A stretch of DNA of 64,000 nt, taken from the NCBI GenBank assembly GCA_963725335.1, contig CAVRYD010000014.1:698598-762597 (forward strand), in the 5' to 3' direction. Positions 9,523 through 63,565 of this stretch are shown here, piece by piece. Each line of letters begins with the position of its first letter. The stretch's first letter is position 1. The position numbers and the translations under genes are program-made. A model generated the notes under the pieces. It was given only the letters and a program-made list of their open reading frames with translations, did not search any database and had not been told where the DNA came from. The DNA comes from an uncultured Acidobacteriota bacterium (GTDB lineage: Bacteria; Acidobacteriota; Vicinamibacteria; Vicinamibacterales; 2-12-FULL-66-21).

Positions 9523-9770
9523 GCGGATTGCGGATTGAAGATTGCGGATTTTGTGATGGCCGATTGTCGATTGAGATTGCTGATTGTCGATTGAGATTGC
9601 CAATTTACGATTGTATGGCCGAATCGGCCGGCTCAGAGGCCAATCGCCATTCCAATCAGCAATCGTCAATCCAAGTCAGCAATCGTCAATCCAAATCAGC
9701 AGTCCGCAATCTCAATCCGCAATCCGCAATCAAGAAATCCGCAATCTTCAATCCGCAATCAGCAATTCTT
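9523..9770. repeat. heptamer-phased imperfect palindrome (GATTGNN units / NNCAATC units)
   Basis: Left arm is built of GATTGCG/GATTGAA-type 7-mers and the right arm of their complements. The outer 26 nt are perfect inverted repeats: GATTGCGGATTGAAGATTGCGGATTT at 9526-9551 versus its reverse complement at 9735-9760. The centre lies near 9620-9640. Confidence 0.85.
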
Positions 9771-11136
9771 TTGCGGCTTTGTGCCCGCTAACGACCGCGC
9801 TTTCGATGGTGCCCGGAAGCCCTGTGTCGATCCAGTCGCCGGCGAGAACGAGGCCGTTGAGTGGTGTCGAGGTCGGCGGGCGAGCGGGTTGGCCCGGCGC
9901 GAGCGAGAACGTCGCATGTTTTTCTCGAACGATGGTGGCGCGAACGAGGCGGCGCTGGCGAGCGCCGGGAAGTGCTTCCTGCACTTCCCTCGCGGCCAGC
10001 GCGGTGAGCTCGTCACGTCCCAGCGACGTCAACGCGGTAGCCCCGCTCGAGACCAGCGAGAGATGCGAGGCGCTTTCGCCGAATGCCATGCGCTTGTCGA
10101 AGACCCATTGCATCTCGCGCCCGGGCAGGCCGACGAACGGTTCGTCCATGACGCGGCCGTCGTACCAGAGGTTGACGGTCACGATGGGCATCGATTCCAT
10201 CGCGCTGGCGGAGGCAACGATCGGAACGAGTTCGGGCGGTGGCGAGGGAAGGAACAGGCGTCCGAGATCGAACCATGGAACCGCCGCGATCACCCGGCGG
10301 GTCGCGATGCGCTCGCCGCGGACATCAACGCCGCACACCCGTCCATGTTCCGTGATCACCCTGGCGAGTGCGTTGGTGCGGACGTCGCCGCCTCGCGCCT
10401 CGATGAACCGTTTCGCTGGCTCCGCGTACATTTCGTGCAAGGGACACGCCGGCAGCACAAGCGCCGAGTCGCGCGCATCAGGCCCGAACATCTGCGCGAG
10501 CACACGCACGAACGGCGACGCGGACGCCGCTGCCGGCGACTGGTTGAGCGCCGCGACCGCGAGCGGCTCCCACAACCAGGACCGCAAATTCGGACGCTGT
10601 CCGTGCGCAGCCAGCCATTCAGACACGGTTCCGTCGGGTTTGGCAGAAACGGACCCGGTTCGTGTGAGCTCGCGGCGCGCCCGGCGCAGCTCCCGTGCGA
10701 GCATCAGCACTGAGAGCCGATCGCGCCAGGGAATGGCGCCCCATTGCAGCACCCCGGCGAGCAGGTGGTACGGAGAGGGGAGCTTCGGGCAGCGCAAGAT
10801 GGAACGCCGACCGGATCGATCGAGATACGGCACGGCCAGCGCCGGCTGTACCTGGATGCGATCGAGCGCCTGTATCCGTTCGAGAAATTCAAACGTCGCG
10901 TGATAACAGCCGAAGAGCACGTGCTGGCCGTTGTCGACGAGCTCCCCCGTTTCGCGATCGCGGAAGGCGGTCGCGCGTCCGCCGAGCTGCGACCTGGCAT
11001 CGAGCACGATCACACGCTCGCCACGCGCCGCCAGCGCTGCCGCGGCGCTGAGGCCAGCGAACCCGCCACCGACGACCACGACCGGATCCGATGGACGCAC
11101 GGGAGATCCCATGTCGGGCGTCGCGCTGTCTGACAT
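9748..11136 (-). CDS. hpnE: hydroxysqualene dehydroxylase HpnE (FAD-dependent, phytoene-desaturase fold)
   Basis: ORF track 9748..11460 trimmed to ATG 11136 (MSDSATPD...), which lies 8 nt after the hpnD stop. FAD motif VVVGGGFAGLSAA, followed by GGRATAFRD...DNGQHVLFGCY as in HpnE. Confidence 0.85.
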   Translation of the reverse strand: MSDSATPDMGSPVRPSDPVVVVGGGFAGLSAAAALAARGERVIVLDARSQLGGRATAFRDRETGELVDNGQHVLFGCYHATFEFLERIQALDRIQVQPALAVPYLDRSGRRSILRCPKLPSPYHLLAGVLQWGAIPWRDRLSVLMLARELRRARRELTRTGSVSAKPDGTVSEWLAAHGQRPNLRSWLWEPLAVAALNQSPAAASASPFVRVLAQMFGPDARDSALVLPACPLHEMYAEPAKRFIEARGGDVRTNALARVITEHGRVCGVDVRGERIATRRVIAAVPWFDLGRLFLPSPPPELVPIVASASAMESMPIVTVNLWYDGRVMDEPFVGLPGREMQWVFDKRMAFGESASHLSLVSSGATALTSLGRDELTALAAREVQEALPGARQRRLVRATIVREKHATFSLAPGQPARPPTSTPLNGLVLAGDWIDTGLPGTIESAVVSGHKAAKELLIAD

Positions 11137-11144
11137 GGTGACGG

Positions 11145-11984
11145 TCACCGCACGCGCAGCATGGTGCGCGCCCAGGTGGCGGCCGCGATGACCGCCCGCT
11201 GCGGGCGTGGAATTCGAACGACGCGGGTAAACACATCGTAGTCCGCGCGCTCGATCCGGTTCAGGATGCTGAGGTAGATGGCGCCCATGATCTCGGCTGC
11301 CGCCAGCCGTCGCCCGTCGACCGCCGGCAGTTCGGCGGCCGCCTTGACGTAATAGGTGCGTGCCCGATCCGCCTGCTGCCGAAGGAGGCTTTTCACACTC
11401 GGCGATTGCACGCCGCGTCCCCTCGCGTTTATTTCCCGGACGAGATCGTCTTCGGAACACTGGTGCGCGCGTAGGTCGGCTTGAGGGATATAGACACGGC
11501 CGCGTGAAAGGTCCTCGGGTACGTCGCGCAGGATGTTGGTCAACTGCAGCGCGACCCCAAGATCGGTGGCGTATTGTCGCGAGCGCGGATCGACGTATCC
11601 GAAGATCTCGAGGCAGATGAGTCCGATCGCCGAAGCCACTCGTATGCAGTACCCGTACAAGTCGGCGAACGATTCGTATCGCCGCGAATCGAGATCCATC
11701 TCGACGCCCTCGATGAGCGCGTCGAACGCGGATCGCGGCAGGTGGAACTCACCGACGAGGGGGGCAAGCGCGCGTCCCTGCGAGGTCTGCGGCGGCCCGC
11801 CGTCGAAAACCGTGGCGAGCTCCGCTCTCCAGCGCGCCACCTGCGATCGTGCCGGTTCCCCCACTCCCGCCTCGTCCACGGCATCGTCGACGGCGCGGCA
11901 GAAATCCCAGACGGCGACGATCGCGCGGCGTTTGTCCGGCGGCAGCACCAGGAACGAGTAGTAGAAGTTCGTGTCGCGGGCCAT
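11145..11984 (-). CDS. hpnD: presqualene diphosphate synthase HpnD (squalene/phytoene synthase family)
   Basis: ORF track 11145..12044 trimmed to the conserved start MARDTNFYYSFLVLPPDKRRAI. Asp-rich motif AVDDAVDE. Confidence 0.85.
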   Translation of the reverse strand: MARDTNFYYSFLVLPPDKRRAIVAVWDFCRAVDDAVDEAGVGEPARSQVARWRAELATVFDGGPPQTSQGRALAPLVGEFHLPRSAFDALIEGVEMDLDSRRYESFADLYGYCIRVASAIGLICLEIFGYVDPRSRQYATDLGVALQLTNILRDVPEDLSRGRVYIPQADLRAHQCSEDDLVREINARGRGVQSPSVKSLLRQQADRARTYYVKAAAELPAVDGRRLAAAEIMGAIYLSILNRIERADYDVFTRVVRIPRPQRAVIAAATWARTMLRVR

Positions 11985-11985
11985 G

Positions 11986-15305: not shown

Positions 15306-15872
15306 ATGTCGATTTTGAAGATCGCGCGCATGGGGCATCCCGTCCTGCGCGCGAAGGCCCGCGCGCTGCATCCCTCCGAGATCCGGACCCCGAAGATTCA
15401 GCAGCTCATCGACGACATGCTCGAGACGATGAAGGAGTATCAGGGGATCGGACTTGCGGCACCGCAGGTCCATGAAGGGCTGCGGATCTTTGTTGCCGGG
15501 TTCCCTCCCCGAAAGGACGTCGACGAGGACGACGAACGCGAGGAAGGGGAGGACGTGCCGCTGATGGCGCTCGTCAATCCTGAAATCGAGATGTCGTCAC
15601 GCGATGTCGTCGAAGATTGGGAGGGGTGCCTGAGCATTCCCGACATCCGAGGCCGCGTGCCGCGGGCGCGTCATATCGTCGTCCGCGCCTTCGATCGCAG
15701 TGGCAAGAAGATCGAGATGCCGGCGTCCGGGTTCACCGCGCGGGTGATCCAGCACGAGACGGACCATCTCGACGGCGTGCTGTTCTTCGATCGAATGAAG
15801 AATTTCCAGTCGTTGACGTTCCTCGACGAGTTTGGACGGTACTGGAGCGGCCACAACGTCCGCGCGGAGTGA
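15306..15872 (+). CDS. def: peptide deformylase
   Basis: 188-aa ORF carrying the three PDF motifs GIGLAAPQV, EGCLSIP and HETDHLDG. Confidence 0.9.
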   Translation: MSILKIARMGHPVLRAKARALHPSEIRTPKIQQLIDDMLETMKEYQGIGLAAPQVHEGLRIFVAGFPPRKDVDEDDEREEGEDVPLMALVNPEIEMSSRDVVEDWEGCLSIPDIRGRVPRARHIVVRAFDRSGKKIEMPASGFTARVIQHETDHLDGVLFFDRMKNFQSLTFLDEFGRYWSGHNVRAE

Positions 15873-15884
15873 GCGAGTGAGCTG

Positions 15885-15985
15885 AATCCCTAATCACTAA
15901 TCACTGATCCTGAATCGCTAATCCCGAATCCTTCAATCCCGAATCCTTCAATCCCGAATCCTTGAATCGCTGAATCGCTGAATCG
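15885..15985. repeat. left arm of heptamer-phased inverted repeat flanking the four-helix-bundle gene
   Basis: The arm reads AATCCCT AATCACT AATCACT GATCCTG AATCGCT AATCCCG AATCCTT CAATCCC GAATCC... Its outer 62 nt (15885-15946) are the reverse complement of 16522-16584, apart from 1 mismatch and 1 single-nt indel (hand alignment). Confidence 0.85.
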
Positions 15986-15997
15986 TGCATCTTCCTG

Positions 15998-16393
15998 TCA
16001 CTCTGATGAGCTGTGCGAGCCCCGGTCGTTCCAGTCGCTTCGGCGCAGGTATTTGATGAATCCTCCGAGCATCTTGCCGAGTTCCTCGCCGGCTGTGAGA
16101 TGCGGGTTCAGTTCGTCCTTCGAGATGAGTTTCTTGTGATGTGCCTGTCGAAGGCGCCTGAGAACCTCTGCCAGCGAAGCTTTCGAGTGGGTCAGGAAGT
16201 GCGCAAACGCACGATCGGTGCCTTGCTCGAAGCCTTCCTCCATGTTTGAGGTAATCGAGTCGTTGGCGTCCGAGATCTGTTCATGGAGTTTGCGATCTCT
16301 GCGCAGCCGTGGCGTCTCCAATATCGCATTAACTGCACTCCAGAAAGCCTCGGCCTTGTGATACATGGGGAGTTCCTCTAGCTTGTGAGCCAT
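15998..16393 (-). CDS. four-helix-bundle protein (23S rRNA intervening-sequence protein family)
   Basis: ORF track 15998..16438; likely start ATG 16393 (MAHKLEELPMYHKAEAFWSAV...). The pattern ...ISDANDSITSNMEEGF...F..FL..SKASLAEV...L matches my recollection of this family. Confidence 0.75.
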   Translation of the reverse strand: MAHKLEELPMYHKAEAFWSAVNAILETPRLRRDRKLHEQISDANDSITSNMEEGFEQGTDRAFAHFLTHSKASLAEVLRRLRQAHHKKLISKDELNPHLTAGEELGKMLGGFIKYLRRSDWNDRGSHSSSE

Positions 16394-16440
16394 GCCCCAG
16401 CAGTTAGGCACAGCACATGCCAGGATCCGGCATCCCACGA

Positions 16441-16584
16441 TTCAGGGATTCAGGGATTCAGGGATTCCAGGATTCAAGGATTCCGGGGATTCGGGGATTT
16501 GATTCGAGGATTCGGGATTGAGGATTCGGGATTGAAGGATTCGGGATTAGGCGATTCAGGATCAGTGATTAGTGATCAGGGATT
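16441..16584. repeat. right arm of heptamer-phased inverted repeat flanking the four-helix-bundle gene
   Basis: GGGATTC/AGGATTC-type 7-8 nt units. The outer part is the reverse complement of 15885-15946. It overlaps the last 5 codons and stop of the thyX-like gene (..SIPDH*). Confidence 0.85.
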
Positions 16585-18176
16585 GACCGCCGTTGTTCGA
16601 GAGCCCGTTCGGAACTCAGACGTTCGAGTTCGACTTCGGAGTGATCCACGAACTGCATCGCGGCGGCCAGTGCGCGGTGGCCGGCCCGCTGCGCGATCAG
16701 CGTGTGCATGCGCTGACACACTCGCCGATATGCGGGGTGGCCCTGCGGCGCGGAGCGCAGCTCGAGAACGTGCATCGCTTCGCGCGCGTTCATCTCCATG
16801 TAGAACCGCACCCGGTACACCATCGCAACCGCATATGGTGCAGCCGCTCTGAGGCCGGCCGCCGTCAGGGCATCGTGAAGGTTCGCGGACCGTTCCATGA
16901 CCTGGTTCCAGTCGTCCCCCGCTCCCGCTTCGACGATCGCTTCCGGCTGAATGAATCCGTGCCGGGGGGTCAGCGGCTGCCACTCGATCGTCAACAGGCG
17001 ATGGCGCTGCAGATCGCGAAACGCGCCATAGTCGGTCAGCACGTCGAAGCGATAACTCGTGCGCTCGAAGGCGCGGCCGGGACGATGGCGGCGGTTGGTG
17101 CGGTTGCCAACGTAGGCGCGAAGGATCGTGAGACGCTCATCAGCCGACAAGCGCTTCGCGATGTCGAGAAGCTGATCGTCGGGGAGGTCGGAAACCGCGT
17201 ACAGCGCCGCCGCGACGACTTTCGTTTCCCCCGCGGGGTCGAAGTCGGTCAGGGTCACCTCATCGCGCGGCTCGGGCTCGACCGCGGACAGGTCCGCCGC
17301 GACGTCTTCGAGTTCCTCGCGGATCGCCGCGAAGTAGCCGCTCCAGCGCCCGCCCCGGTCGGGCTGGTCGACACGCGTGAGGAATGCGGGAATGATCTTC
17401 CGCAACTCGACGAGCATCTGGTCAGCGCACGCACGAACCTCGGAAAGCGGATTGGCGCGCATGCGCAGCAACAACGCCTCGAACGCTTGACCGGTGCCGA
17501 AGATGCCGACGTTCGATTGTGTGGCAGCGGGAAGCATTCCGCGCAGTGTGTCGAGCGCCTTTGCGCGGATCGCCGCGCGATGGACGCCATCGGAATCCCC
17601 CGGCGCTTTTGGATATCGGCGGCTGAAGTACTCCTGCATCGCCGGAATCCATCTGGCGTACGTCTCGAACGCGCGATCCATCGTGTGCACGTACTGGTCG
17701 CGCAATTGTCCGGCTCCGATTTCCTCTGGAACGTGGTAACGCCACCGGTCGTGGAGCTTGTCCGTGTAAGGAACGTACCGCGTCGACTGCTCGAGGTAGG
17801 CCATCAGGCGACCCCATTCGAGCACTTTGGTGAGGACGTTGGACACGTACTCGCACGCGATGTGCGCACCGCCGAGCTGCGCGACGGAATCATCGCCGTA
17901 GTCGCTGAAGACCCGCGCGTAGAGGCGGTCGGCGCGTTCTATCGCGGCGCTGGCGGCAGGCGCGCGCGCACCCCGCTCGTCTTCGGCCGCGCCGACCTTG
18001 TCGGCGAACTCGTCGAGGAACAGCCGGCGAAGACTCTTGGCCGAGCGGGAATATCTCGCGAAAAGCGCGCCCTTGACCGTCTCGGGCAGGTTGATCAGCG
18101 CAAAGATGTGGCTATCGAGGTTGGTGAAGTACGGCGTCAGCCGCGCGCGTTCTTCCGGCGTGAACTCTTCGGACAC
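16569..18176 (-). CDS. ThyX-like FAD-dependent thymidylate synthase family protein (double-length form)
   Basis: 535-aa ORF starting at GTG. ARYSRS and two RHR-containing segments (TNRRHRPGR, DLQRHRLLT) recall the ThyX motif. The assignment is from memory of long Thy1-domain proteins and has not been searched. Confidence 0.55.
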   Translation of the reverse strand: MSEEFTPEERARLTPYFTNLDSHIFALINLPETVKGALFARYSRSAKSLRRLFLDEFADKVGAAEDERGARAPAASAAIERADRLYARVFSDYGDDSVAQLGGAHIACEYVSNVLTKVLEWGRLMAYLEQSTRYVPYTDKLHDRWRYHVPEEIGAGQLRDQYVHTMDRAFETYARWIPAMQEYFSRRYPKAPGDSDGVHRAAIRAKALDTLRGMLPAATQSNVGIFGTGQAFEALLLRMRANPLSEVRACADQMLVELRKIIPAFLTRVDQPDRGGRWSGYFAAIREELEDVAADLSAVEPEPRDEVTLTDFDPAGETKVVAAALYAVSDLPDDQLLDIAKRLSADERLTILRAYVGNRTNRRHRPGRAFERTSYRFDVLTDYGAFRDLQRHRLLTIEWQPLTPRHGFIQPEAIVEAGAGDDWNQVMERSANLHDALTAAGLRAAAPYAVAMVYRVRFYMEMNAREAMHVLELRSAPQGHPAYRRVCQRMHTLIAQRAGHRALAAAMQFVDHSEVELERLSSERALEQRRSIPDH

Positions 18177-19310: not shown

Positions 19311-19351
19311 GCGCCTCGCTCGGGTCGCAGGCGCTTTCCCTTTTCCCTTTC
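19311..19351. repeat. hairpin (GCGCCT-N12-AGGCGC) plus TTTTCCC heptamer tract, copy 1
   Basis: gcgcctcgctcgggtcgcaggcgctttcccttttccctttc. A near-identical copy in the same orientation lies at 20432-20484. This copy sits downstream of the + strand MBL gene like an intrinsic terminator. Confidence 0.7.
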
Positions 19352-20431: not shown

Positions 20432-20484
20432 GCGCCTCGCTCGAGCCGCAGGCGCTTTCCCTTTTCCCTTTTCCCTTTTCCCTT
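20432..20484. repeat. hairpin (GCGCCT-N12-AGGCGC) plus TTTTCCC heptamer tract, copy 2
   Basis: gcgcctcgctcgagccgcaggcgctttcccttttcccttttcccttttccctt. This is a direct repeat of 19311-19351 with two extra TTTTCCC units. Confidence 0.7.
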
Positions 20485-20499
20485 GTACGATTGTCGGTC

Positions 20500-24121: not shown

Positions 24122-24126
24122 GCGGC

Positions 24127-27287: not shown

Positions 27288-27340
27288 GCCTGAATTCTAG
27301 TGCCCGTGTGCGCGCTTCGCAAGGACGCCTGCGGCGACCG

Positions 27341-49169: not shown

Positions 49170-49229
49170 TGATCACTAATCGTGAATCCCGAATCCCGAA
49201 TCCCGAATCCCGGATCCCGGATCCGAATC
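49160..49229. repeat. ten in-phase heptamers CACTAAT CACTGAT CACTAAT CGTGAAT CCCGAAT x3 CCCGGAT x2 CCGAATC
   Basis: Counted base by base. The array fills the gap between the DUF420 stop (49233) and the GGDEF start (49169). Confidence 0.85.
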
Positions 49230-49232
49230 GGT

Positions 49233-49647
49233 TCACAGCCGATACAGCATCAGGTAGACGATCACGCCCGTGACCGAGACGTAGAGCCAGATTGGAAACG
49301 TCCATCGAGCGATTGCGACGTGACGATCGAAGCGTCCCCGGAGACCACGGATGACCGTGATGAGCGCCAGCGGCAGCACGGTCGCGGCGAGCACGACGTG
49401 CGTCAGAAGGATCATGAAGTAGACCGCGCGAATCGGACCGCGTCCCGGGAATGGTTTCGACCCGATGTTCGCGTGATAGATGACGTACAGATGTGAGAAA
49501 CGCCGTCGACACCGCGCATGCCGTGAGCATCGTCGCGCGGTGGCGGCGCATGTCGCCGGCGCGGATGAACGAGTAACCGATCACCAGCAGAACGGCAGCG
49601 GTCGCGTTCAGGCTGGCGTTGAGCGCCGGAAGATCGGAGAGAGTCAC
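49233..49647 (-). pseudogene. DUF420 family membrane protein (cytochrome-oxidase-associated), one +1 frame break
   Basis: Pieces are ORF 49162..49647 (MTLSDLPALNASLNATAAVLLVIGYSFIRAGDMRRHRATMLTACAVSTAFL) and ORF 49233..49415 (..ILLTHVVLAATVLPLALITVIRGL..WLYVSVTGVIVYLMLY). 415 nt minus 1 is a multiple of 3. Confidence 0.75.
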
Positions 49648-53863: not shown

Positions 53864-53938
53864 GCCGGTATCGTCTAGGGGTCAGGACACGTGGTTCTCA
53901 GCCACGGGACCGGGGTTCGAATCCCCGTACCGGTACCA
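53864..53938 (+). tRNA. tRNA-Glu (anticodon CUC), CCA encoded
   Basis: Hand-folded cloverleaf: acceptor GCCGGTA/TACCGGT, D arm GTCT-AGGGGTCA-GGAC, anticodon arm CGTGG-TTCTCAG-CCACG, variable GGAC, T arm CGGGG-TTCGAAT-CCCCG, discriminator A, CCA. Collinear with E. coli tRNA-Glu. Confidence 0.9.
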
Positions 53939-53957
53939 TTCTTCAAGCCGAAGGCTC

Positions 53958-55430
53958 TCAGTTATTTCGAGCGATTTCCTTCGCGCCATCAGAGTCTTCC
54001 GCGAGACTCTGTTCCGTTGGAACTTGAAAGATTCCTGAAACGTCTGCCTCCGCATCAGCGATCGCGTCGAAAGCCTTGTGTCTAATGCTTCCGATTGTCG
54101 CGAACGATTGGCCGAGCGCGAGCGCCAACGCCAGCAGCAGCACCACACCCGCTCGCGCGGCTGGCACTGCGGTCACCGGCGTGAACAGGGCCAACGGAAT
54201 GGCGGCCGCGATCGCCTGGTAGCCGGCTTGGTTCGGGTGAACGTGATCGCACGTCAAATCAGAGCGCAGGGACCAGGCCGGATCGCTGGCATCTTTGACG
54301 GCTGCTTCGACGTCAATCACCGCATCGAAGCTCGGTTCGGCGGCGCCTTGGCGCTTGTCGTGGTCGCGAATCCATTGGTTCACGACCTGAGCGGTTTGCT
54401 TGTTGTTGCCGACGTCCTTGACGGAGTGGCCAAAAGGGAGGATTGGAACCCCGAGGATCTGCTTCCTCGCCTGGTGAGCTTTGGCGATGGCCTGCTCGTA
54501 GGCGGTCTCGAGAAAGGAGGCGTCGACGTGCTCGTACGAGATGTCGTTCACGCCCATGAGCAGCATCACCCATCGCACCTCCGGCAGCCTCAACAGTTCA
54601 TCCAGGCGCAACAAGCCACGAAGACCCGCGCCATCGGACGAGGCAAAGCGCCCCGACCCGATGCCGGCGTTCAGCACGGCTAGCGCTGTCCCGTCGGGCA
54701 GGGACGGCATCCGTGCCGCGAGCCGATCCGGCCAGTCGCCGTCTGCATCCACCGCGGAGCAGGCCCCTTCGGTGATCGAGTCGCCGAGCGCCACGATCGC
54801 CGCCTCTGGACGGGACGCGAGAACCTGCACCTCGTAGACCGCAAAAACCTGGCGGGTCGTCGACGCCCCCGTCAGAGACGTCGCGGAGACCTGGTTGCCG
54901 GCACCGTGATACGCGGTCTTGACCTGCGCGCGCCCGCCCTCGGTTGTCGGAACGAACGAGCCCGGCACGTACAGCGAGATCGCCAAATCCTGCCCTGCGC
55001 TGACAGGCAGTGTGACGGGATCACTCCACAGGTCGCTGCCAGCGGCAACGAGCGCCGACGAGCTCCCCGCGAACGTGAGCGCACGGTCTGTTCCGCTGGC
55101 GATACCGCTGCCGCTGGTGCGGATCGCGACGTGCCCAGCGCCAATCCCGAGTGATGTCGCGGAGAACCGCTGACTGAGTCGCACCCTCACCTGTGAACCG
55201 CCCGCGGTGAGGTGCGCCATCACCCGCAGCGTGCGGCCGGTCAGATCCGGAACCGGATCCGTGAACGTATGATCGGTCGTAATCGTGGTGGAGAGCGGTC
55301 CTCTTCCTATCCACGCGGACACCCACGTGGGCGCCTGCGCCTGCGCGGTCACTGCGATCAATGCGCATGACAGCGCGAGGACGACAATGATCGACGAGCG
55401 AGGAACGTTTCGTCGCAGCCGTGAGCTCAT
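53958..55430 (-). CDS. secreted SGNH/GDSL-family hydrolase
   Basis: ORF track 53958..55640 trimmed to ATG 55430 (MSSRLRRNV..., signal peptide ..AVTAQAQA). Block I ALGDSITEG, block V DHVHPN. An unusual 75-aa C-terminal tail has one hydrophobic segment. Confidence 0.75.
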   Translation of the reverse strand: MSSRLRRNVPRSSIIVVLALSCALIAVTAQAQAPTWVSAWIGRGPLSTTITTDHTFTDPVPDLTGRTLRVMAHLTAGGSQVRVRLSQRFSATSLGIGAGHVAIRTSGSGIASGTDRALTFAGSSSALVAAGSDLWSDPVTLPVSAGQDLAISLYVPGSFVPTTEGGRAQVKTAYHGAGNQVSATSLTGASTTRQVFAVYEVQVLASRPEAAIVALGDSITEGACSAVDADGDWPDRLAARMPSLPDGTALAVLNAGIGSGRFASSDGAGLRGLLRLDELLRLPEVRWVMLLMGVNDISYEHVDASFLETAYEQAIAKAHQARKQILGVPILPFGHSVKDVGNNKQTAQVVNQWIRDHDKRQGAAEPSFDAVIDVEAAVKDASDPAWSLRSDLTCDHVHPNQAGYQAIAAAIPLALFTPVTAVPAARAGVVLLLALALALGQSFATIGSIRHKAFDAIADAEADVSGIFQVPTEQSLAEDSDGAKEIARNN

Positions 55431-55495
55431 CGGGTGCGCAAATGGCTTCCGAATCGATGACCTGGCCGTCGCCGAGCCTCGATGCGCCTCCCGGC

Positions 55496-58400
55496 TCAGA
55501 ATGAATATTTCAACCCGAACTGAATCTGGCGCATCGGAAGGGCGGTTGAGGTGATGACGCCGAAGCCCTGATGCGCCGCGTTCTCGGCCGCGCCCGGGAA
55601 TGCCGCGCCCGCCAGGATGTTTCCGTTGGGTGCGCCCCACACCGGATGGTTGAACACGTTGAAGGCTTCGACCCTGGCCTGAATGCGGTGGCCATTCGGC
55701 AGCCGGAAATTCTTCGCCAGCGACGCGTCGATCTGCTGCAGATGCGGCGTCGTCATCGAATTGCGCCCGACGGTCCCGAATTGGCCCTCAGGAGACAAGA
55801 CGAACGACGCGGGGTCGTACCAGCGCGTCGGCGAGGGGTCGGCGGCATAGCCGTCGCCCACGCCCGAGTAGCTCGGACGGTCGTTCACCAGGGCGTTGGT
55901 GCCCGATTGAACCTTGCCGGCCGAGAGCGTCTGCGGAACGCCGCTCTGGATCGTGGTGTTCGTGCTCAACTGCCACCCGCCGACAATGCCGTCCAGGACG
56001 GCGTTGTCGATGTTCACCGGTTTGCCCTTGCCGAACGGCAGCTCGTAGACGGCGCCCATGACCCAGCGATGGCGCACGTCGAACGAGGAGGGCCCGGTCT
56101 CGCATTCCATGCAGCGGCTGTCCTGCGGGAACAGCGTGTCGAAGCCCTGCGTGCGGGTTCCGCTGGAGTTGTCGATCGACTTGGCCAGCGTGTAGCTCGT
56201 GTTCAGGCTGAGCCCGTCACCGTAGCGGCGCGTCGCCTTGACGCTGAACGCGTTGTAGTGCCCTTTGTTCTGGTCGGTCACATACGAGATCACGCCGAAG
56301 GTCGGATAGGGCACGCGCGAGCTGATGGTGTTCAGCGGGCCCGGACCGGCCTGGTTAAGGGTCTGGAACCCATACAGATGGCGGCTCTGCGATCCGAGGT
56401 AGCCCACCTCCACTGACCAGTTCGCGGCAAGCTGCCGCTCCACGTTGACCAGATACTGCCAGGTGCGCGGCGTCTCGTGACCGTAGGCGGCCGCCCACGT
56501 CAACGTCGGAGGCACCGAGGCGAGCCCCCCGCCGGGAACGGCATTGGCCCAGGTGAGCAAATTCGTCGTCCCCGCTTGAAAGTCGACGCGGGCGGCGGTA
56601 ATACGGGCCATGTCGAAGTACTCGGCGTTGCCGATGTCTTCCATGTAGTAGAGCCCGACGCCGGAGCGAACGACCGTCTTTTCCCCGAGCGCGTAGGTCG
56701 CGCCGAGCCTGGGCGCGAAGTTCTATGTCTTCGTCTCCCGCAGGTTGTTGTTCATCCCGAAATCCTTGGCGCACCCGACCGGCGTGACTGACCAGCGGAG
56801 GCTCAGACCGGCGTACGGATCGGTGCAGTCGTCGCCCTGGCGCACCAGCGTCGGATAGTTCGACTGCGGCTGATTGAGGCTGTAGTCGATCGTCGGGATG
56901 TGCGACCGTGAAGTAGTTCCCCAGCGTGTTGGTGAACGGCGGCGTCAGCTCGTAGCGCAGGCCGGCCAGCAGCGTGAAATTGTTCGTCACCTTCCAGTTA
57001 TCGTCGACGAACGCGTGGAAGACGTTGCGGACGAATTTTCCCTCGGCGACGGCCAGCGCGACGGTCGTGTGGAACGGCTGGCCGAGCAGGAACTCGGCGA
57101 AGGCGTAGCCGCCGGTGTTGTTCACCGGGTTCCTGGTGGTATTCGCCTGGAAGGAGAAGATCCCGCGGGAAAACTGGTTGCCGACCTCGTTGAAGTGCTG
57201 CCGGTCGTACTCAGCGCCCATGCCGATGGTGTGGCGTCCTTTCACCCACGTCAGCTTGTCGACGAACTGCAGCGTGTTGTTGTCGACGGCGAACGGGCCG
57301 TCGTTGGCATCACCGATGTCGTTGAACCCGGTGAACGAGACGTCCGGAATGCCCCACGTGACCGGGTCGCCGGATTTCAGGTTCGGGATCTTCACATCGG
57401 AGACCACATCGTTGGTAAAGGCCGACAGGGTGCCGATCGAGTTGAAGAACTTGGTGTAGCCGAACCGCGCGTCGTTGACCAGCCTGGAGCTGAGCGTCCG
57501 GGTGTTCGAGGCGCCCCACTGCTTGTAGTTCGTAATGGTCTTCGAACCCGCCAGACCGATGCCCTGGCTCGACTGCGTGTCGTCGCCCCAGTTGTAGCGC
57601 CCCATCCACTGTGACGATGGCGATTCGTTGAAATCGGCGCGAACGACATAGCCGTTGCGATCGAACGGCGCCGAGTTGTCCTGCACGTAGTTGTTTTGCA
57701 GACCCGGAAGCGTCGCCGCGTGGTAGTACGACAGTAAGTTCTTCGAGATCGGATCGATCCGGCCTGCCGGAATGACGTTGCCGGGGAACGGCTGGCCCGT
57801 GGTCGGGTCGTAGATGACGGTGCCGGGAATCTCGCTGAAGTCGCCGGCGAACATCTTCTCGGTCGGCACGGTGAACGTGGACTGGGTGGTCTGCCGGCGC
57901 CGCAACTTCTCGAAGTTGGTCATGAAGAACAACTTGTTGCGGAAGCACGGGCCCGTCCACCTCGTAGCCGAAGTCGTTCCACTTGAATGGCGACTTGGCC
58001 GGGTGGACGCTGGTGAAGGCGTAGGGCTTGGCGTCGAATTTCTCGTCGCGGAGGAATTCGAAGACCGAGCCGTGGAAGGCATTGCCGCCTGATTTGGTGA
58101 CGACGTTCACCTGCGTGCTCTGGTGACCGAACTCGGCCGGGTAGACGCCGGTCTGGACCTTGAACTCCTGAATCGCATCGATCGACGGCAGGGCGATGTA
58201 GTTGTTGAAGTTCGGGTCCGTGTTACTGACGCCGTCGAGCGTGTAGTAGTTGAAGAAGATGCGCTGACCACCGGCGGAGATGGACTGCGCGGCGCGCTCG
58301 CCGCCAAGTCGGGCGCCCGCCTGCCCCGCCGCGGGCGAGAGCACGTTGACGTTGGGCGCGACGGCGACCAGATTCAGGTACTGTCGGCCGTTCAGCGGCA

Positions 58401-58854
58401 GCTCGGTCACGATCTTGTTCTCGATCACCGTACCGAGCGTGGTGCTCTGCGTGTTGAGCAGGGTGGATTCACCGACGACGGTCACCGTCTCGCCGAGCGC
58501 ACCGACCTGCAACGGCACGTCCACTCGTACCGTCTGCTGGACGTCGACCTTGAAGGAAGGGATCTCTGCGGTCTTGAAGCCTTGCAGCTCGACTTTCAGT
58601 TCATAGGAGCCGGGAGGCACAGCGGGGAAGGTGTAGAGCCCTTCCGCGTTGGTCGTGGTATTGCGCGTGCCCCTGGTGGCCGTGTTGGTCACCGTGACGG
58701 TGGCGCCGGGGATAGCGGCACCCGACGAGTCTGTCACCGTGCCGGTGATCCCGCCTTGCGTTTGCGCGCGGCCGGTCACGACCCATGGATAGCTTGTCGC
58801 GAGCAGAATCACTACGGTGAGGAGACGTGCGACCGAACGCGACCTGTGTCTCAT
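55496..58854 (-). pseudogene. TonB-dependent-receptor-like outer-membrane protein with CarboxypepD_reg N-domain; two +1 frame breaks and one in-frame TAG
   Basis: GGAG RBS and ATG 58854 (MRHRSRSVARLL...). Pieces are ORFs 57310..58965, 56355..58082 and 55496..56644, ending in QFGLKYSF. Breaks lie near 57941-57942 and 56898-56903. In-frame TAG at 56725-56723 within ..RETKT*NFAPRLG... Confidence 0.85.
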
Positions 58855-59070
58855 GTTTTCTCCAAAGTCACTGGCGAGCATGGACAGCGAGCTGCTGCAT
58901 GCGCCGTGAATGTGGGGCGTCGGCCACGCCCAAACAAGGTGGCCTACGGTACGCGACGGTGTCATGCGCCCAGTTTGGCGTCGTTTTTTCGAACGATTGG
59001 GTCGCAGGCGTGGTCCGCGCCGGAACCGGTACGGTACCGTCGATCGTGATAGAGTCGACCCCCATTCACC

Positions 59071-60327
59071 ATGGCGCGAGCCTCAAATGCCGAGTCCGGG
59101 CACGCCGACGGCGTCTCGGGGCTCGACCACGCGGCCGTGCATGCGCAGCTCGCCCGGCTACTGGAGAGTCCTCATTTCCGCAACAGCAAGCGGAGCCAGG
59201 CGTTGCTGCGGTTCGTGGTCCAGGCAGCGCTGGCCGGCGACCAGAACTCGCTGAAAGAGAGATGCATCGGGGCTGCAGTCTTCGGCCGCGAGCCCGCATA
59301 TGACACAGCCCAGGACCCGATCGTGCGCAATGCGGCGATCGAGGTGCGGAAGCGGCTCGCGCAGTACTATCTCGAGCCTGAGCATGCTGCCGAGTTGCGG
59401 ATCGAGCTCCCGAGCGGATCGTACATCCCGTCATTTCCGGCCGAATCGGCCGCACTGGAACCAGCGGCGCCACGGCCGAAGGCCCACGGCTCTCCGCTGC
59501 GGTGGATCGCCGTCGCCGCGCTCGCGGTGATTGCGGCGGCAGCGGCATTTCTGTGGGGTGCGCGGCGCACGCCGACGTCGGATCTCGAGGCGTTTTGGGA
59601 GCCGCTCTTCCGAGACGGGAGCGCGATCCAGGTGAGTATCGGCCAGCCCACGCGTCTGTATCGCTTTACCGGACCGCGGATGGAGGAATTGAACCGGCTG
59701 TTCGGCGGTGGGGAATCGGACGGCGTAAAAGGAACCAAACCGCCGATTGCTCCCGACGAAGTCGTCTGGGTGGCGCCGGAGTATCTGTTCCTGCGGGACG
59801 CCCTGGCCGCGTTCAAGGTGGCGGCGTGGATTCAATCCAAAGGCCACGCGTCCCGGCTGGCGTCGGTCGCGCAGACCAACTACTCGCAGCTTCGGCATGC
59901 GCCGCTGGTCGCGATCGGGGCCTTCAACAACGCGTGGTCGATCCGGGTCACCGCCGAGCTGAGGTTCGTGTTCGAGTATCGAGTGATCGACGGGGTTGCA
60001 TATCATTGCATCGTCGACCGGCGCAATCCGACGAGCGTCCTGTGGAAAGTGGCGCAGCCGGCGAGTGGCGGAATGAGCGAAGACTATGCGATCGTGACGC
60101 GGGTTTTCGAACCGACCACGGAGAAGACGGTGATTTCAGTGGCCGGTATCGAGACGTATGGCACGTTCGCGGCAAGCGAGTTCGTCACGGAACCGACCTA
60201 TCTCGAGGCTGCGCTGGGCGCCGCGCCGCCGGACTGGCGGCGCAAGAACGTGCAATTCGTGTTGGGCACAAAAATCATCGATGGGACTCCCGGGCCGCCG
60301 CGGATCCTGGCCGTTCAATTCTGGTAA
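59071..60327 (+). CDS. single-pass membrane protein with conserved cytoplasmic N-domain (type found at the N-terminus of acidobacterial regulator/TPR proteins)
   Basis: 418-aa ORF with LESPHFRNSKRSQALLRFVV...LKERCIGAAVFGREPAYDTAQDPIVRNAAIEVRKRLAQYY...LPSGSYIPSF, then TM WIAVAALAVIAAAAAFLW and a periplasmic domain of about 250 aa. Confidence 0.6.
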   Translation: MARASNAESGHADGVSGLDHAAVHAQLARLLESPHFRNSKRSQALLRFVVQAALAGDQNSLKERCIGAAVFGREPAYDTAQDPIVRNAAIEVRKRLAQYYLEPEHAAELRIELPSGSYIPSFPAESAALEPAAPRPKAHGSPLRWIAVAALAVIAAAAAFLWGARRTPTSDLEAFWEPLFRDGSAIQVSIGQPTRLYRFTGPRMEELNRLFGGGESDGVKGTKPPIAPDEVVWVAPEYLFLRDALAAFKVAAWIQSKGHASRLASVAQTNYSQLRHAPLVAIGAFNNAWSIRVTAELRFVFEYRVIDGVAYHCIVDRRNPTSVLWKVAQPASGGMSEDYAIVTRVFEPTTEKTVISVAGIETYGTFAASEFVTEPTYLEAALGAAPPDWRRKNVQFVLGTKIIDGTPGPPRILAVQFW

Positions 60328-60333
60328 CCGCAT

Positions 60334-60470
60334 TGGCGGACACGTCTACCGTGCCGTCGCGTCCGCATGGTCTACGGCGGGGAGCACGCCACCCTCGAAA
60401 GTGCGAGCGCGCGGGAGCGGCAACTGAAACGGTGGAGCCGCGAGAAGAAACAAGCGCTCGTCCATCACTC
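60334..60470 (+). pseudogene. remnant of a small GIY-YIG nuclease family gene (C-terminal part only)
   Basis: The frame of ORF 60367..60759 reads ..RRVRMVYGGEHATLESASARERQLKRWSREKKQALV, matching the C-terminal ..LVYYE....A..REKQLKGWSR.KK.ALI pattern of that family as I recall it. The N-terminal GIY-YIG half is absent. Confidence 0.4.
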
Positions 60471-61100
60471 GGCGCGCAGCGCGTCAATAGGCTGGATTCG
60501 AAGCGCGCGACGCAGCGGCCCTAAGGTCGCCAACGCCGAAACCGCGACGACCAGGCACCCGTACAGGGCGATGACGCGGACCATGTCTCCCGCCGACACG
60601 CGGTCCGCGATGGCCACTCCGATCACGATACCCAGTCCGACTTGCATCAGTGGGCGCCGGAACAATGCGGCTATCACGTGCCGGCGCCGTCCGCCGAGCG
60701 CGACGCGAATGCCGACCTCTCGCGCCCGTTGCGAGGCGATGAAGGAGAGGACCGTGTAGATGCCGGTCAGCGAGAGCATTACCACGACGATCGCCAGGGC
60801 CAGGAAGAGCCAGAAGAGCAGCGTCATCGTACGGCCAGCTGCGGCTGCCACTTGATCGAAGCGGGCGATGTCCGAGATCTGGAGGGTGGGTTCGACCTCT
60901 CTGGCGAGGGACCGCAGCCGTGATGCGAAGAGCAGGGGATCGCCGGTCGTATGGACGGCCATGCGGACGGGATAGCTTCCGCCCGCCACCAGCGGGTGAT
61001 AGACGCGGGCCCTTCTCGAGTCGCGCTTTTCCGGATCGATGCCAGGATCCCGCACGACGCCCACGACTTCATACCACGGCTGGTTCGGACCGTTCGCCAC
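60465..61100 (-). pseudogene. C-terminal fragment of an FtsX-family (MacB/ADOP-type) ABC permease
   Basis: 211-aa ORF with ..YEVVGVVRD... followed by the four-TM FtsX module (GIYTVLSFIASQRAREVGIRVALGGRRRHV...LRRALRIQPIDALRAE). Full-length relatives are roughly 800 aa, and an in-frame stop lies just upstream (about 61183). Confidence 0.7.
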
Positions 61101-61584
61101 ACTCTGCTGTGTGGGGGCGCTGTTGTCGCCGCATGAGATCGTCGTCGAGTGGATAGAGACGAATCCGATCGCCCGCGACGACGCTCAGTACGCACCGGTA
61201 GGAAGCTACATGTTCATGTCATTGGACAGGTGCGACAAGCGGGTTGACTAACCTTCGGCTGGCTTCGCCACACCGCCGCGAACTCGCGATCCTCCGCGTC
61301 CCAATCAGGAAGATCTTCGTCCCAATAACGCATGATCTGGTACGGCCACGCTGCTTCGGCGCGACAAGTTCTGCATCGCGTCAGTGGCGGCGTCGAAGGC
61401 CTTGCCGGCTTCGAGCCGCGCGACCGCCGCCTGCAGCGCTTCGAGCCGCTGGTTGTCGTAGCGCTCGGTCGTCACGATCAAGCTTGAAGATCAAGTCGAG
61501 ACCGAGCGAGAGCGTGAAAAATCGCGTCGGAGGATCCAGGAAATTCAGCGCCAGTCGCGCCGGTCTCAACAGACGCTCGAATCC

Positions 61585-62058
61585 TTGTCGACGCGGCTGA
61601 GCGACTTGGCGACGAAGATCGGATCGCAAGAAGCCGGCTATGAATTCCAGACGTGGTTCTACGATTTGATGGACTTTTTCGAGGTTGTCAACCGCCGCCC
61701 ATACACGGCGTCGGGGCGCCAGATCGACGGCTCGATCACGGTATCCGGGACCACATATCTCGTAGAGCTGAAGTTCACGCGCGAGCAGGTCGGTGCCACG
61801 GACATCGACAGCGTTGTGAAGAAGATCAACGACAAAGCAGACAATACGATGGGCATCATGGTATCGATGTCCGGGTATTCCACTATCGCGCTCAGCGAGG
61901 CATCCGGGCGAAGGACGCCATTGATGCTCATGGATCACCGTCACGTGTACTACGCGTTGGGCGGTTCAGCCGCGTTTGGCGAGATCGTTGACCGGGTACG
62001 TCGTCACGCGTCTCAAACAGGAGAGGCGTTTTTGCCCTCCGAGTGTTTCGGGGGCTGA
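61585..62058 (+). CDS. restriction-endonuclease-like (PD-(D/E)xK, Mrr-type) domain protein, probably 5'-truncated
   Basis: 157 aa from TTG. GYEFQTWFYDLM...GRQIDGSITVSGTTYLVELKF gives a D...E-x-K pattern. The frame stays open upstream to a TAG at 61459-61461 and encodes a charged coiled-coil-like stretch (KLEDQVETEREREKSRRRIQEIQRQ) without a start codon. Confidence 0.45.
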   Translation: MSTRLSDLATKIGSQEAGYEFQTWFYDLMDFFEVVNRRPYTASGRQIDGSITVSGTTYLVELKFTREQVGATDIDSVVKKINDKADNTMGIMVSMSGYSTIALSEASGRRTPLMLMDHRHVYYALGGSAAFGEIVDRVRRHASQTGEAFLPSECFGG

Positions 62059-62422
62059 GTAGCCATGCGGCGTGGCTCGCGGACCGAAAGCCTCCCTCAT
62101 CAACCGATCCTGGCGATAGTCGAGCGGCTGAGCGAGCGAAAGCTCGGCGCCCTTCACTGTGCCAATATTCTGGCAGTCCGTGCGGCTCTCAGTTGATCGA
62201 TTCCCTCCGCGGTGACTGCAGCGAACCCGAACGCGAATCGATTCGGCCTCAAGTCGTTAAGAAACACCAAGGGCGACCTTCTCCAAGAGGTCGCTGTTGG
62301 CTTCGAGGGTTTCGATTGTCCACATCACGACGATGCCGCGACACGCCGCCCGTCTGCGAACGATGCCGTCGCAGCTTGCTAAACCAGCTCACGAACCTCG
62401 AAGGTTAATTGCAGCCAACCGA

Positions 62423-63051
62423 CTAACGGTGCAGGACGATTTCGGTCGCGAGGGGCATCCCCCTGCGATTGACGACGTAGGTGCCGATCTCTGGCGGGGT
62501 CACGTCGTCAGATTCGCGGACGACCATTCTGGCACCGTCAGGCCCTGTCCTTGCTGACAAATCCTTAAGACGGCTCCGTGCTGACGCTGAGGTGCGAGGC
62601 TGTTCCGTCTCAGAGCGCCCCAAAATGATAATGAGACTCGCTGGCGACTCGCCGACCTCGAATAGAACCGGACCGCGAACCGTAACGTCTTCCCTTTGAA
62701 GAACTGTGTATAGCAATTGCGTACCGAGGCTGCTATTAGGGCTATCCATTCGCCAGACGCTCACAAAGGCGCCAACATTTCCTCGAAGATGCAGCGTCAA
62801 CGAGCCCTGGGCGGAGGGGGCGCGCTCTTCGCTAAACGCCTGCCCATTGGCGTCCTCGAACCAATAGTGAATGCCGACGAAACCGTATTGTGGAAACGGA
62901 CTCGCCCACTTAACCGACTTCAGCCGTTGCCCGGTCCCGCCACCGGCGTCGGCCGGCCGGCCGCCGGATCATAAAACATTGCTTTGGCACTCGAAGACTG
63001 TGAGGGCACCGCGCCCGACGGTCCGGCGGCAAGAACCAAGAACTTTCCCAT
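62423..63051 (-). pseudogene. hypothetical protein (DUF4384-like pattern), frame broken by an apparent 1-nt deletion
   Basis: ATG 63051 (MGKFLVLAAG...PVAGPGNG*) continues in another frame as QRLKSVKWASPFPQYGFVGIHYWFEDANGQAF..SLTLHLRGNVGAFVSVWRMD.. (ORF 62423..62800). 629 nt plus 1 is a multiple of 3. The region is AT-richer. Confidence 0.35.
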
Positions 63052-63431
63052 AAACCGTCCCTCACAATCATCCCTGTCAAACCCTCGGGTCGCTGGCTCC
63101 ACAAACGCGGTATTTCGCGAACGATGTTGGCTATCTGATCCGAAAGCAGTTATAAGTCAAATCCGGCAGCCGCTCGAGGACTCCGCGTCCGATGTGACTT
63201 TTTGTTGCCCGATCTCAGAGCGGCTTAACGACCCTTCCTCCGGAGCATCCGAGCAGTCTCGTTGGCCACTTGCCTCGATAGTGGCCAACTCGATTCGTGT
63301 TTGTACCTTGAAGAAAACTTGAAACTTTGCGCACGAAACGAGCCCTTTCGACCGGAGACGGCCGGAGCGATATGTGCAAATTTCCTAAGGAAACCGACGC
63401 AACCGGACACCGCCGATGTGTCGGGCTGCGT

Positions 63432-63474
63432 TTCTCAGCCACGGGACCGGGGTTCGAATCCCCGTACCGGTACC
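63432..63474 (+). other. 43-nt perfect copy of the 3' part of tRNA-Glu (anticodon loop to C75): att-site-like direct repeat
   Basis: TTCTCAGCCACGGGACCGGGGTTCGAATCCCCGTACCGGTACC is identical to 53895-53937. The 30 nt upstream do not form acceptor, D or anticodon stems. Confidence 0.85.
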
Positions 63475-63475
63475 T

Positions 63476-63565
63476 CAATCGCTAATCCCTCGTCACTGAT
63501 CCGAATCCCCAATCGTCGAATCCCTGATCCTCGAATCCCGAATCCTGAATCCTCCGCATAATCCT
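63476..63565. repeat. heptamer-phased array (CAATCGC TAATCCC TCGTCAC TGATCCG AATCCCC AATCGTC GAATCCC TGATCCT CGAATCC CGAATCC TGAATCC ...)
   Basis: This is the same AATCC-type unit family as 15885-15985 and 49160-49229. It starts directly after the tRNA 3'-half copy. Confidence 0.75.

Follow-up and report, generated by a model that had tools for sequence, protein, structure and literature searches.

What kind of genetic object are the tandem arrays of units of about seven nucleotides that occupy gaps between genes in the genome of an uncultured acidobacterium of the order Vicinamibacterales, and does a gene belong with them? The question is raised by a 64,000-nt stretch of GenBank assembly GCA_963725335.1 (contig CAVRYD010000014.1, positions 698,598 to 762,597), hereafter the window, for which an initial annotation had listed eight such loci as one family of heptanucleotide arrays. 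Heptamer arrays have been reported since 1990, first in cyanobacteria and then in Xanthomonas and Geobacter, and we know of no accepted function for them. The PF05635 protein family poses a second puzzle, as it is very widespread and its role outside diversity-generating retroelements (DGRs) is without assignment. The two meet in the window, where the largest pair of arrays brackets a PF05635 gene. We hypothesize that arrays of the AATC type are the two arms of a hairpin element resembling the intervening sequences (IVSs) of 23S rRNA. The pairing of gene and arrays gives a concrete handle on both puzzles.

Short-unit arrays in the window

Tandem Repeats Finder (TRF) confirmed all eight listed loci as tandem arrays of short units, at 9519-9613, 9641-9766, 15881-15985, 16439-16584, 19335-19350, 20456-20484, 24125-24156, 42274-42337, 49157-49229 and 63501-63552. 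A lag self-match scan (28-nt window, self-match of at least 75%) found six segments at lag 7 in the window against 0.05 in 20 dinucleotide shuffles, so the arrays are real and non-random. The same scan of the window returned no segments at lags 3-5 and 10-13, and a few segments appear at lags 8, 14, 15, 20 and 21 in TRF and the lag scan. Units were first described as seven nucleotides long and kept in phase, which does not hold: unit length runs from 6 to 8 nt, the arms next to the PF05635 gene match themselves best at lag 8, and higher periods of 15 (7+8) and 20 (7+7+6) mean that phase is not kept. Nor do the arrays form one family, for the window (59-67% G+C throughout) holds at least four unit families with differing architectures. 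The number of copies per array lies between 2 and about 19 and does not peak at four (TRF).

The tandem heptanucleotide units lie in non-coding DNA, close to stop codons, with four of seven sites between co-directional genes and several unit families within the one genome. As had been noticed, they abut genes closely and contribute stop or start codons to them. Opposed pairs are found at two of the listed sites and, as a third case that the initial annotation had missed, at 27338.

A complete element between def and a thyX-like gene

The AATC-type arrays are arms of one element type, the complete form of which spans 15883-16586 (minus strand) in the gap between the convergent genes def (15306-15872, plus) and thyX-like (16569-18176, minus). 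It consists of the outer ends TGAATCCCT... and ...GGGATTGA, opposed arrays, and a gene in the loop; like an IVS, in other words, it is an inverted-repeat stem with an open reading frame (ORF) in its loop. In the gene's orientation the 5' arm (16439-16584, minus) has outer AATCCCT/GATCACT/AATCACT units and inner GAATCC(N)(N) units, with TRF periods of 7, 8 and 14, and the complementary 3' arm (15883-15985, minus) begins 10 nt past the def stop codon. The arms are collinear, with inverted repeats of 34 nt (97% complementary), 30 nt (100%) and 64 nt (83%), and in an RNA fold of the whole 726-nt element the arms pair and leave the gene in the loop (-338 kcal/mol, z -13.5). This pair had been listed without its gene, which parts the two arms; among the listed loci a compact hairpin is found at 9519-9766 only. 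The outer units of the 5' arm do encode the tail S-I-P-D-H-stop of the thyX-like protein inside the array, as proposed, and the tail reads S-I-P-N/H-P-stop at the orthologous loci L003, L005 and L006. The thyX-like gene itself has 535 codons and two Thy1 (PF02511) stretches; it scores 44.7 bits against TIGR02170, below the cut-off of 87.9. The product is thus not a standard ThyX but a long ThyX-like protein that may be duplicated.

The gene in the loop (15998-16393, minus) encodes a 131-aa four-helix-bundle protein of the 23S rRNA intervening-sequence protein family, related to Avd. It matches PF05635 at 7.6e-17 (61.9 bits, cut-off 33.8), and it also matches TIGR02436, "four helix bundle protein", at 3.8e-19 (68.9 bits, cut-off 24). 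Its score against the DGR Avd equivalog NF033474 is only 16.5 bits, with the cut-off at 80, so the protein is no DGR Avd; no reverse transcriptase lies nearby, and both a DGR and a retron were rejected as candidates. A defense system was likewise rejected, with no PADLOC match and no phage match, as were arrays of the CRISPR kind, since the units are contiguous and have no spacers. By sequence the nearest known structures are 2GSC (Xanthomonas XCC0516, E 3e-4) and 2RLD (E 5e-3), and the former is a pentamer of four-helix bundles (PMC4990558). Purifying selection acts on the protein: dN/dS among relatives is 0.04-0.19, although dS is saturated. A tblastn search of the window with 29 family members found no second or decayed PF05635 copy.

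Between the 5' arm and the gene lies a sigma-54-like -24/-12 box, TGGCATGTGCTGTGC (16408-16422, minus), 14 nt upstream of the ATG. The box reads TGGCATG-N4-GTGC in the window, and TGGCAYGNNNNNTGC has its single match in the 64 kb at this position. Of the 14 full-length acidobacterial loci described below, 13 have a GGCAY-N7-TGC motif at the inner edge of the upstream arm, with its start 27-31 nt (mostly 28-29) before the ATG, and a comparable box is present at a locus where the gene is truncated (L015). The window box fits the sigma-54 consensus, with GG and GC doublets 10 nt apart in a TGGCAC-N5-TTGCW-like sequence and at a fixed distance from the gene. This implies a candidate sigma-54 promoter that would give a near-leaderless transcript starting inside the hairpin.

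Turnover of the element in acidobacterial relatives

Scanning species-representative genomes with an alignment of the window protein returned 17 loci, 14 of them with a full-length gene, in Vicinamibacterales or other Acidobacteriota metagenome-assembled genomes. Opposed arrays flank the gene in all 14 of these, and also in locus L022. The outer ends T(C/G)AATC(A/C)CT... and their complement ...AG(G/T)GATT(C/G)A are kept across distinct genomic sites, whereas the interiors of the copies differ: the arms are 72-187 and 85-206 nt long, and the inner units vary as well.

Turnover can be followed at the def/thyX gap. A def-anchored metagenome scan yielded 80 loci. The full element is present at this site in the window and in L003, L005 and L006, and the gap in L018 holds one AATC-type arm only. 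In many relatives the gap is just 8-25 nt. L019 and L020, both among the closest relatives, belong to this group and keep only footprints of the outer units, for example AATCCCT...AGTGATTAGTGATT. Other lineages have gene-less hairpins of other heptamers there (GGCTGAT, TCCAAAT, GAATTAA, GGGCTCA). In a neighbor-joining tree of def and thyX the element-bearing and footprint-only lineages interleave, which favors one gain followed by repeated loss. Inserts of about 800 nt, short-chain dehydrogenase-like by eye, occupy the gap at two further loci (L023, 7669-8461; L052, 1163-1980). The def/thyX gap looks like a place of recurrent insertion.

Period-7 arrays are common throughout this lineage. We counted TRF arrays by smallest period in unbiased, def-anchored DNA. 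The window has 17.2 arrays of period 7 per 100 kb; the corresponding figures are 13.9 for relatives (294 kb; def at least 60% identical) and 0.7 for more distant taxa (295 kb), a roughly 20-fold enrichment in relatives. The arrays extend beyond the window and other periods do not equal them, so the outcomes that the initial annotation named as refuting it did not occur. By extrapolation, 14-17 arrays per 100 kb would amount to several hundred per genome of a few megabases. Relatives, too, have several unit families per genome, and 20 kb of L028 contains 18 hairpin arrays.

Pairing of PF05635 genes and arrays in other phyla

PF05635 genes with flanking arrays of 7-8-nt units are also found in Xanthomonas, Bacteroidota, cyanobacteria and Gemmatimonadota. 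In Xanthomonas arboricola a PF05635 pseudogene in the accB/accC gap has GGGAATC-type units at one flank, and the opposite flank carries the complement of these. The units are GATAAGA/TCTTATC in Winogradskyella, GGTTYAA/TTRAACC in Riemerella and GGGCAGGA/CCCTCCTG in Gemmatirosa. Cyanobacterial PF05635 genes on plasmids have heptamer arrays at their flanks: GGTGTGG/CCTACAC in Nostoc punctiforme, GGAGATA/TATCTCC between cmr2 and cmr3 in Picosynechococcus, and 15 copies of AAAAGCT together with AAAAGCC, in direct orientation, between cas6 and cas4 in Pseudanabaena. A gene with flanking arrays is present in Calothrix as well. Across 27 loci the best self-match falls at lag 7 or 8 in 25 upstream and 23 downstream flanks, against 38 of 283 control windows (13%). 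The unit sequence varies by lineage, and what stays constant is the period and, usually, the inverted symmetry.

Two of the cyanobacterial loci place gene and heptamer arrays inside a CRISPR-Cas operon, between cas10/cmr2 and cmr3 on Picosynechococcus plasmid NZ_CP016476 (L106) and between cas6 and cas4 on Pseudanabaena plasmid NZ_CP112875 (L109). Outside the Acidobacteria many of the PF05635 genes are truncated or frameshifted, with products of 57-88 aa (L098, L101 and L102 among them), and the arrays persist.

The window and about 28 related loci tie PF05635 to heptamer arrays, and extend both to the Vicinamibacterales, a soil lineage that is dominant and yet little studied. Judged from these loci, the short tandemly repeated (STRR) heptamers of cyanobacteria, the GGGAATC repeats of Xanthomonas and the 23S IVSs appear to be linked by PF05635 genes with 7-8-nt flanking arrays.

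Other arrays and hairpins in the window

Two AATC-family copies elsewhere in the window have no gene. The first (49155-49235, minus) is arm-only and strongly asymmetric, with the outer end TGAATCACTAATCACTGATC, which is that of the complete elements, followed by GAATCCC units and a GGTTCA end. It lies between the stop codon of a DUF420 gene (49233-49235) and the start of a GGDEF gene (GTG, 49169). This GTG falls inside the array, as first described, and it is the sole canonical start among the first 50 codons translated, a stretch that includes a hydrophobic N-terminal segment; we infer that it is the real GGDEF start. The DUF420 gene (49233-49647, minus) changes frame about one-third of the way in, its C-terminal part ending ...VIVYLMLYRL-stop, which may be either a frameshift or a sequencing error. 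The second copy (63475-63579, plus) is asymmetric as well: behind its outer end TCAATCGCTAATCCC come AATC-type units over about 75 nt, and then a short opposed stub that ends in GCGATTCTCA. Both copies end in a degenerate version of the other end (GGTTCA and GCGATTCTCA), and they look like strongly asymmetric or arm-only copies comparable to the remnant in L018.

The second of these copies adjoins a tRNA sequence. The 3' 43 nt of a tRNA-Glu(CTC) gene at 53895-53937 are repeated exactly at 63432-63474, 9,537 nt downstream, which is the mark of an island that integrated into the tRNA gene (window 53864-63474). The array starts at the base after the second tRNA-Glu copy and so originally lay directly behind the tRNA gene. 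A tmRNA or complete tRNA beside this array was looked for at 62700-63700 with ARAGORN and Rfam; neither gave anything, and the tRNA-like sequence there is the 43-nt copy. Within the island interval are genes for a GDSL lipase and an outer-membrane beta-barrel protein, along with ORFs that match nothing in Pfam, and no integrase was recognized among the nine ORFs scanned. At 55496-58965 (minus) one large outer-membrane protein (CarboxypepD_reg and OMP_b-brl_4) is split over three overlapping ORFs that cover profile positions 1-52, 49-406 and 489-838, which indicates frameshifts, from either a pseudogene or assembly errors.

Two further hairpins are built from other units. The only compact one among the listed loci, 9519-9766 (minus), has GATTGNN/NNCAATC units of 6-7 nt with a higher period of 20, and no gene. 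Its 86-nt arms (9520-9605 and 9681-9766) are 81% complementary, and its RNA folds at -136.2 kcal/mol (z -12.3). The hairpin sits between the hpnE stop and the thiI start in an hpnC-hpnD-hpnE-thiI run, and its last units encode the tail and stop of HpnE (TIGR03467, 409.8 bits); the tail K-E-L-L-I-A-D-stop lies inside the array, in agreement with the initial annotation. Among the relatives compared, the hpnE-thiI junction measures 2-18 nt in five and 40 nt in a sixth, L028 and L055 have long unrelated inserts, and the 233-nt gap of the window is filled by the hairpin. In L019, the closest relative, the junction holds an 83-nt hairpin with the same seed unit as in the window, TTGCTGA/TCAGCA, which lies over conserved Leu-Leu codons in the last part of hpnE. 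It follows that arrays lengthen and diverge quickly, and at least this one may have been seeded locally.

The hairpin at 27338-27545 (no strand assigned) consists of opposed 8-10-nt units, CGCAGAGA/TCTCTGCG (TRF periods 9, 10 and 38), around a core with a terminator-like GC stem and a T7 run (27431-27454). Its RNA folds at -151.8 kcal/mol (z -11.3). It lies between two minus-strand genes, and a sigma-70-like site follows directly downstream on the minus strand.

The remaining loci are single arrays and tails. Nine GAGCCGC/GAATCGC units at 42274-42337 (plus; period 7 with 9.1 copies, period 21 with 90% match) have no opposed partner and are flanked by two co-directional genes. A short array of GRCTCGC units at 24125-24156 (plus; TRF periods 7 and 14) lies between the stop codon of an EF-hand protein gene (24121) and a co-directional epimerase gene (24195). 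The TTTTCCC runs had been listed as arrays and turn out to be tails of a 40-nt direct repeat with two copies, 95% identical. Copy 1 (19311-19350, plus) is a GC-rich segment followed by a TTTCCCT-type tail; copy 2 (20432-20484, plus, with the repeat at 20432-20471) has a longer (TTTTCCC)4 tail. The copies bracket an HTH_34/ArsR-type regulator gene and a 218-codon gene, both of which are present in L019, where the 40-nt repeat is absent; relative to the orthologous L019 site, copy 2 is part of a longer intergenic spacer with about 55 nt extra. We rejected TTTTCCC as a dispersed family, as the window has only these two copies and a search of 102 related loci gave no other.

A proposed life history of the element

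We propose, with moderate confidence, that the AATC-type arrays are the two arms of an IVS-like hairpin element, and that the arms change by slippage of their units. The complete form has conserved outer ends, arms of 7-8-nt units and a looped PF05635 gene with what would be its own sigma-54-type promoter. Hypothetically, the element entered the def/thyX gap in the ancestor of the clade and was then inherited vertically, with purifying selection acting on the protein, and repeated losses would have left a footprint or one arm behind. Such remnants may account for the arm-only arrays at 49155 and 63475, unless these are non-autonomous copies, and the gene-less hairpins at 9519 and 27338 may be the same kind of structure made from other units. 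Slippage would add or remove units within an arm, so that length and order shift fast and the outer ends stay. When a neighboring gene is read through, the arms would pair into a duplex of about 90-100 bp, which would terminate or stabilize the message upstream of it and which RNase III would cut, as it does in 23S rRNA IVSs with a gene of the same family. Such behavior might explain why the element is tolerated between genes, at tRNA ends, in operons including CRISPR-Cas operons, and in rRNA. The analysis shows the anatomy, the family of the gene, the distribution and the turnover, from which promoter use, RNA pairing in vivo, RNase III cutting, slippage and the means of spread are inferred.

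Support for the element comes from the z scores of the three hairpins (-12.3, -13.5 and -11.3) and from the conserved outer ends, which recur at several genomic sites and on the arm-only arrays of the window. Further support lies in the gene family, the pairing of gene and arrays in Acidobacteriota and other phyla, the lag of 7 or 8 in the flanks, the varied states of the def/thyX site, selection on the protein, the enrichment of period 7 in the lineage and the precedent of the Coxiella IVS. Among the roles first offered for the arrays, a mobile element and an RNA hairpin are the best supported.

Several observations weigh against this proposal. There is no transposase or nuclease and no target-site duplication, so that mobility is read from distribution alone. 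The seed of the hpnE-thiI hairpin seems to come from the last codons of hpnE itself, which fits growth in place better than insertion. Cognate arms fold at a mean of -173 kcal/mol against -165 kcal/mol for arms taken from different elements, a comparison confounded by arm length and shared cores; cognate pairing is thus no better, the two arms of L008 have different higher-order units, and neither lends support to selection for a specific stem. The sigma-54-like box would put the transcript start within the hairpin, which would leave the gene's own transcript without the 5' arm. Flanking arrays are direct rather than inverted in Pseudanabaena and partly so in Nostoc pGamma. We could connect neither the GC-rich single arrays nor the TTTTCCC tails to the element, and the def and thyX tree has just 283 columns and no support values.

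A bolder proposal, which we advance only tentatively, is that PF05635 proteins and 7-8-nt arrays are one ancient two-part system present in at least five bacterial phyla, in which a pentamer acts on the arrays. If this is true, the STRR heptamers, the Xanthomonas GGGAATC repeats, the paired sites of Geobacter and the ORF-bearing 23S IVSs are all the same thing, and the pentamer either binds one unit per subunit or helps to copy or maintain the arrays. This would explain why the period is conserved and the sequence is not.

Whatever their origin, the arrays matter for annotation, as they rewrite the last codons, stop codons or start codons of the HpnE, ThyX-like, GGDEF and DUF420 genes.

Alternative explanations

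The arrays might instead be plain simple-sequence repeats, generated in place by slippage that favors 7-nt steps and neutral to the host, with PF05635 genes sharing the same permissive gaps. We consider this unlikely, although several points favor it: from lineage to lineage one and the same site can hold quite unrelated units, arrays vary rapidly in length and unit order, the terminal heptamer of hpnE is what the hpnE-thiI array repeats, and arm pairing is not element-specific. The excess of heptamers in bacteria has itself been attributed to polymerase slippage, in work cited in PMC4692102. However, slippage alone would not produce opposed symmetric arms, nor would it keep outer ends conserved at several unrelated sites or hold a fixed promoter-like box at the inner edge of an arm. 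It also leaves unexplained why arrays with lineage-specific units stand beside almost all of the PF05635 genes looked at, which come from five phyla or more.

Quite unlikely, in our view, is that the arrays are multi-site binding platforms for a ring-shaped pentameric PF05635 protein, each subunit of which would take one unit, much as spaced triplets are bound by TRAP, and which would control or preserve all arrays of the matching unit type, or that the upstream arm is an enhancer for a sigma-54 activator. The binding is putative, the arrays far outnumber the genes, there are several unit types per genome, and many gene copies are truncated or frameshifted while the arrays persist. To our knowledge cyanobacteria have no sigma-54, and yet they show the pairing. 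On the other hand, the pairing is near-universal although units differ by lineage, the protein is under purifying selection, and the upstream arm is found where sigma-54 activator sites normally lie. The pentameric structure of 2GSC (PMC4990558) would suit a platform of this kind, and paired tandem sites in Geobacter were read by their authors as regulator-binding (PMC2700814).

We regard as very unlikely the view that the host itself evolved the hairpins, as longer versions of intrinsic terminators or as punctuation of operons, with no mobile or selfish part and with the gene as a passenger. The conserved outer ends and the association with a gene would go unexplained, several of the closest relatives have no hairpin at all at the same sites, and hairpins of the AATC and GATTG types have no T-run. 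What can be said for it is that arrays come right after stop codons, mostly between co-directional or convergent genes, that a canonical stem and T-run form the core of the 27338-27545 hairpin, and that the convergent def/thyX gap holds some hairpin in many lineages.

It is highly improbable that the arrays act as G-quadruplexes or i-motifs, as proposed for the Xanthomonas GGGAATC and Nostoc GGGGAYT repeats: although the G-rich strand of 49184-49229 and 16439-16584 has at least four GGG tracts at 7-8-nt spacing and oligonucleotides of related repeats form quadruplexes in vitro (PMC4692102), most unit families have no G3 tracts (GATTGCG, GGCTGAT, TCCAAAT, GAATTAA, GGTTYAA, AAAAGCT), what the families share is period and inverted symmetry and not G-richness, and four units are not preferred.

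Our preferred reading remains the IVS-like hairpin element with slipping arms.

Comparison with known systems

The analogy drawn at the outset with STRR heptamers is fair. Mazel et al. 1990 reportedly described these in heterocystous cyanobacteria as dispersed arrays without gene or hairpin context. STRR1 is CCCCA(A/G)T and resembles the AATCCCC units here. Like the arrays of the window, STRRs are heptamers in tandem outside coding sequence, and one genome has several families of units. The window differs in its host, an acidobacterium of 63% G+C, and in its defined outer ends, and its units are not STRR1-3.

By its distribution the element also recalls the REPIN-RAYT systems, in which a vertically inherited, low-copy gene is said to be flanked by inverted palindromic repeats (Nunvar 2010; Bertels and Rainey 2011). 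In these systems the repeat is also dispersed without the gene in intergenic DNA, and the gene is under purifying selection. However, RAYT belongs to the Y1 transposases and its fold is a known DNA-cleaving one, no catalytic activity is known for PF05635, and repetitive extragenic palindromes are of fixed sequence, whereas the element is made of arrays of 7-nt units. Nor does the element look like a transposable element in the usual sense, as PF05635 is its sole gene, with no transposase and no target-site duplication at its ends, and its copies agree in their outer ends only.

The initial annotation named only the STRRs as known arrays of this kind; comparable repeats are described in Xanthomonas, Nostoc, Geobacter and Coxiella. 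The genome of X. campestris has 186 GGGAATC arrays with 70 convergent pairs, and Nostoc has GGGGAYT arrays (Rehm et al. 2015, PMC4692102). These repeats are intergenic, with 2-26 units, a GAATC/GATT core and 70-75 convergent pairs per genome, and for the most part a stop codon is within 50 bp and the neighboring genes are co-directional; related species have them at the same sites with variable length, and G-quadruplexes have been proposed for them (PMC4692102). The window arrays are like them in being intergenic, near stop codons and often in convergent pairs. On the G-rich strand the window units read GGGATTC against GGGAATC in Xanthomonas, and other window families are not G-rich: some units of the 5' arm read GGGGATT (16486-16500), most units in the window are GGGATTC, GGATTCA or GATTGCG, and others have no G tracts. 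The preference for four units, the minimum for a quadruplex, is not seen in the window. A link to PF05635 was found neither in the consulted sections of Rehm et al. nor by a term search (PMC4692102).

Geobacter metallireducens has families of 16-49 sites, each with four or five tandem 7-8-nt units, mostly as opposite-strand pairs with variable spacing, which were read as binding sites of unidentified global regulators (Aklujkar et al. 2009, PMC2700814). These arrays are short, unlike the arms in the window, and a term search of that paper gave no link to a four-helix bundle or to 23S rRNA (PMC2700814).

The closest likeness is to the 23S rRNA IVSs of Leptospira and Coxiella, which also have a PF05635 gene in the loop of a long inverted-repeat stem, show decay of the ORF in some lineages, and have been proposed to originate as selfish elements (PMC4990558). 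In Coxiella the ORF lies in the loop of a terminal-repeat stem that is excised by RNase III, and three or four GACAGAT heptamers, varying in number between strains, precede it (PMC4990558). In contrast to an IVS, the element is found between protein genes and after a tRNA, outside rRNA. The copy between def and thyX-like is not inserted at helix 25 or 45 of 23S rRNA, and the window contains no rRNA. Its arms are 70-200 nt of repeated units, compared with a 28-bp IVS stem, and its gene differs in having what appears to be its own sigma-54-like promoter and in being subject to purifying selection.

Our literature search, which was incomplete, turned up no description of heptamer arrays in Acidobacteria, although an earlier one may exist, no paper beyond the Coxiella remark that connects PF05635 with repeat arrays at its flanks, and none that brings the repeats of Xanthomonas, Geobacter, Coxiella and the STRRs together. 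As a kind, the arrays are already known from other phyla. Apparently new are their abundance in Vicinamibacterales, the defined ends of the element, its putative sigma-54-type promoter, and the tie to PF05635 across phyla.

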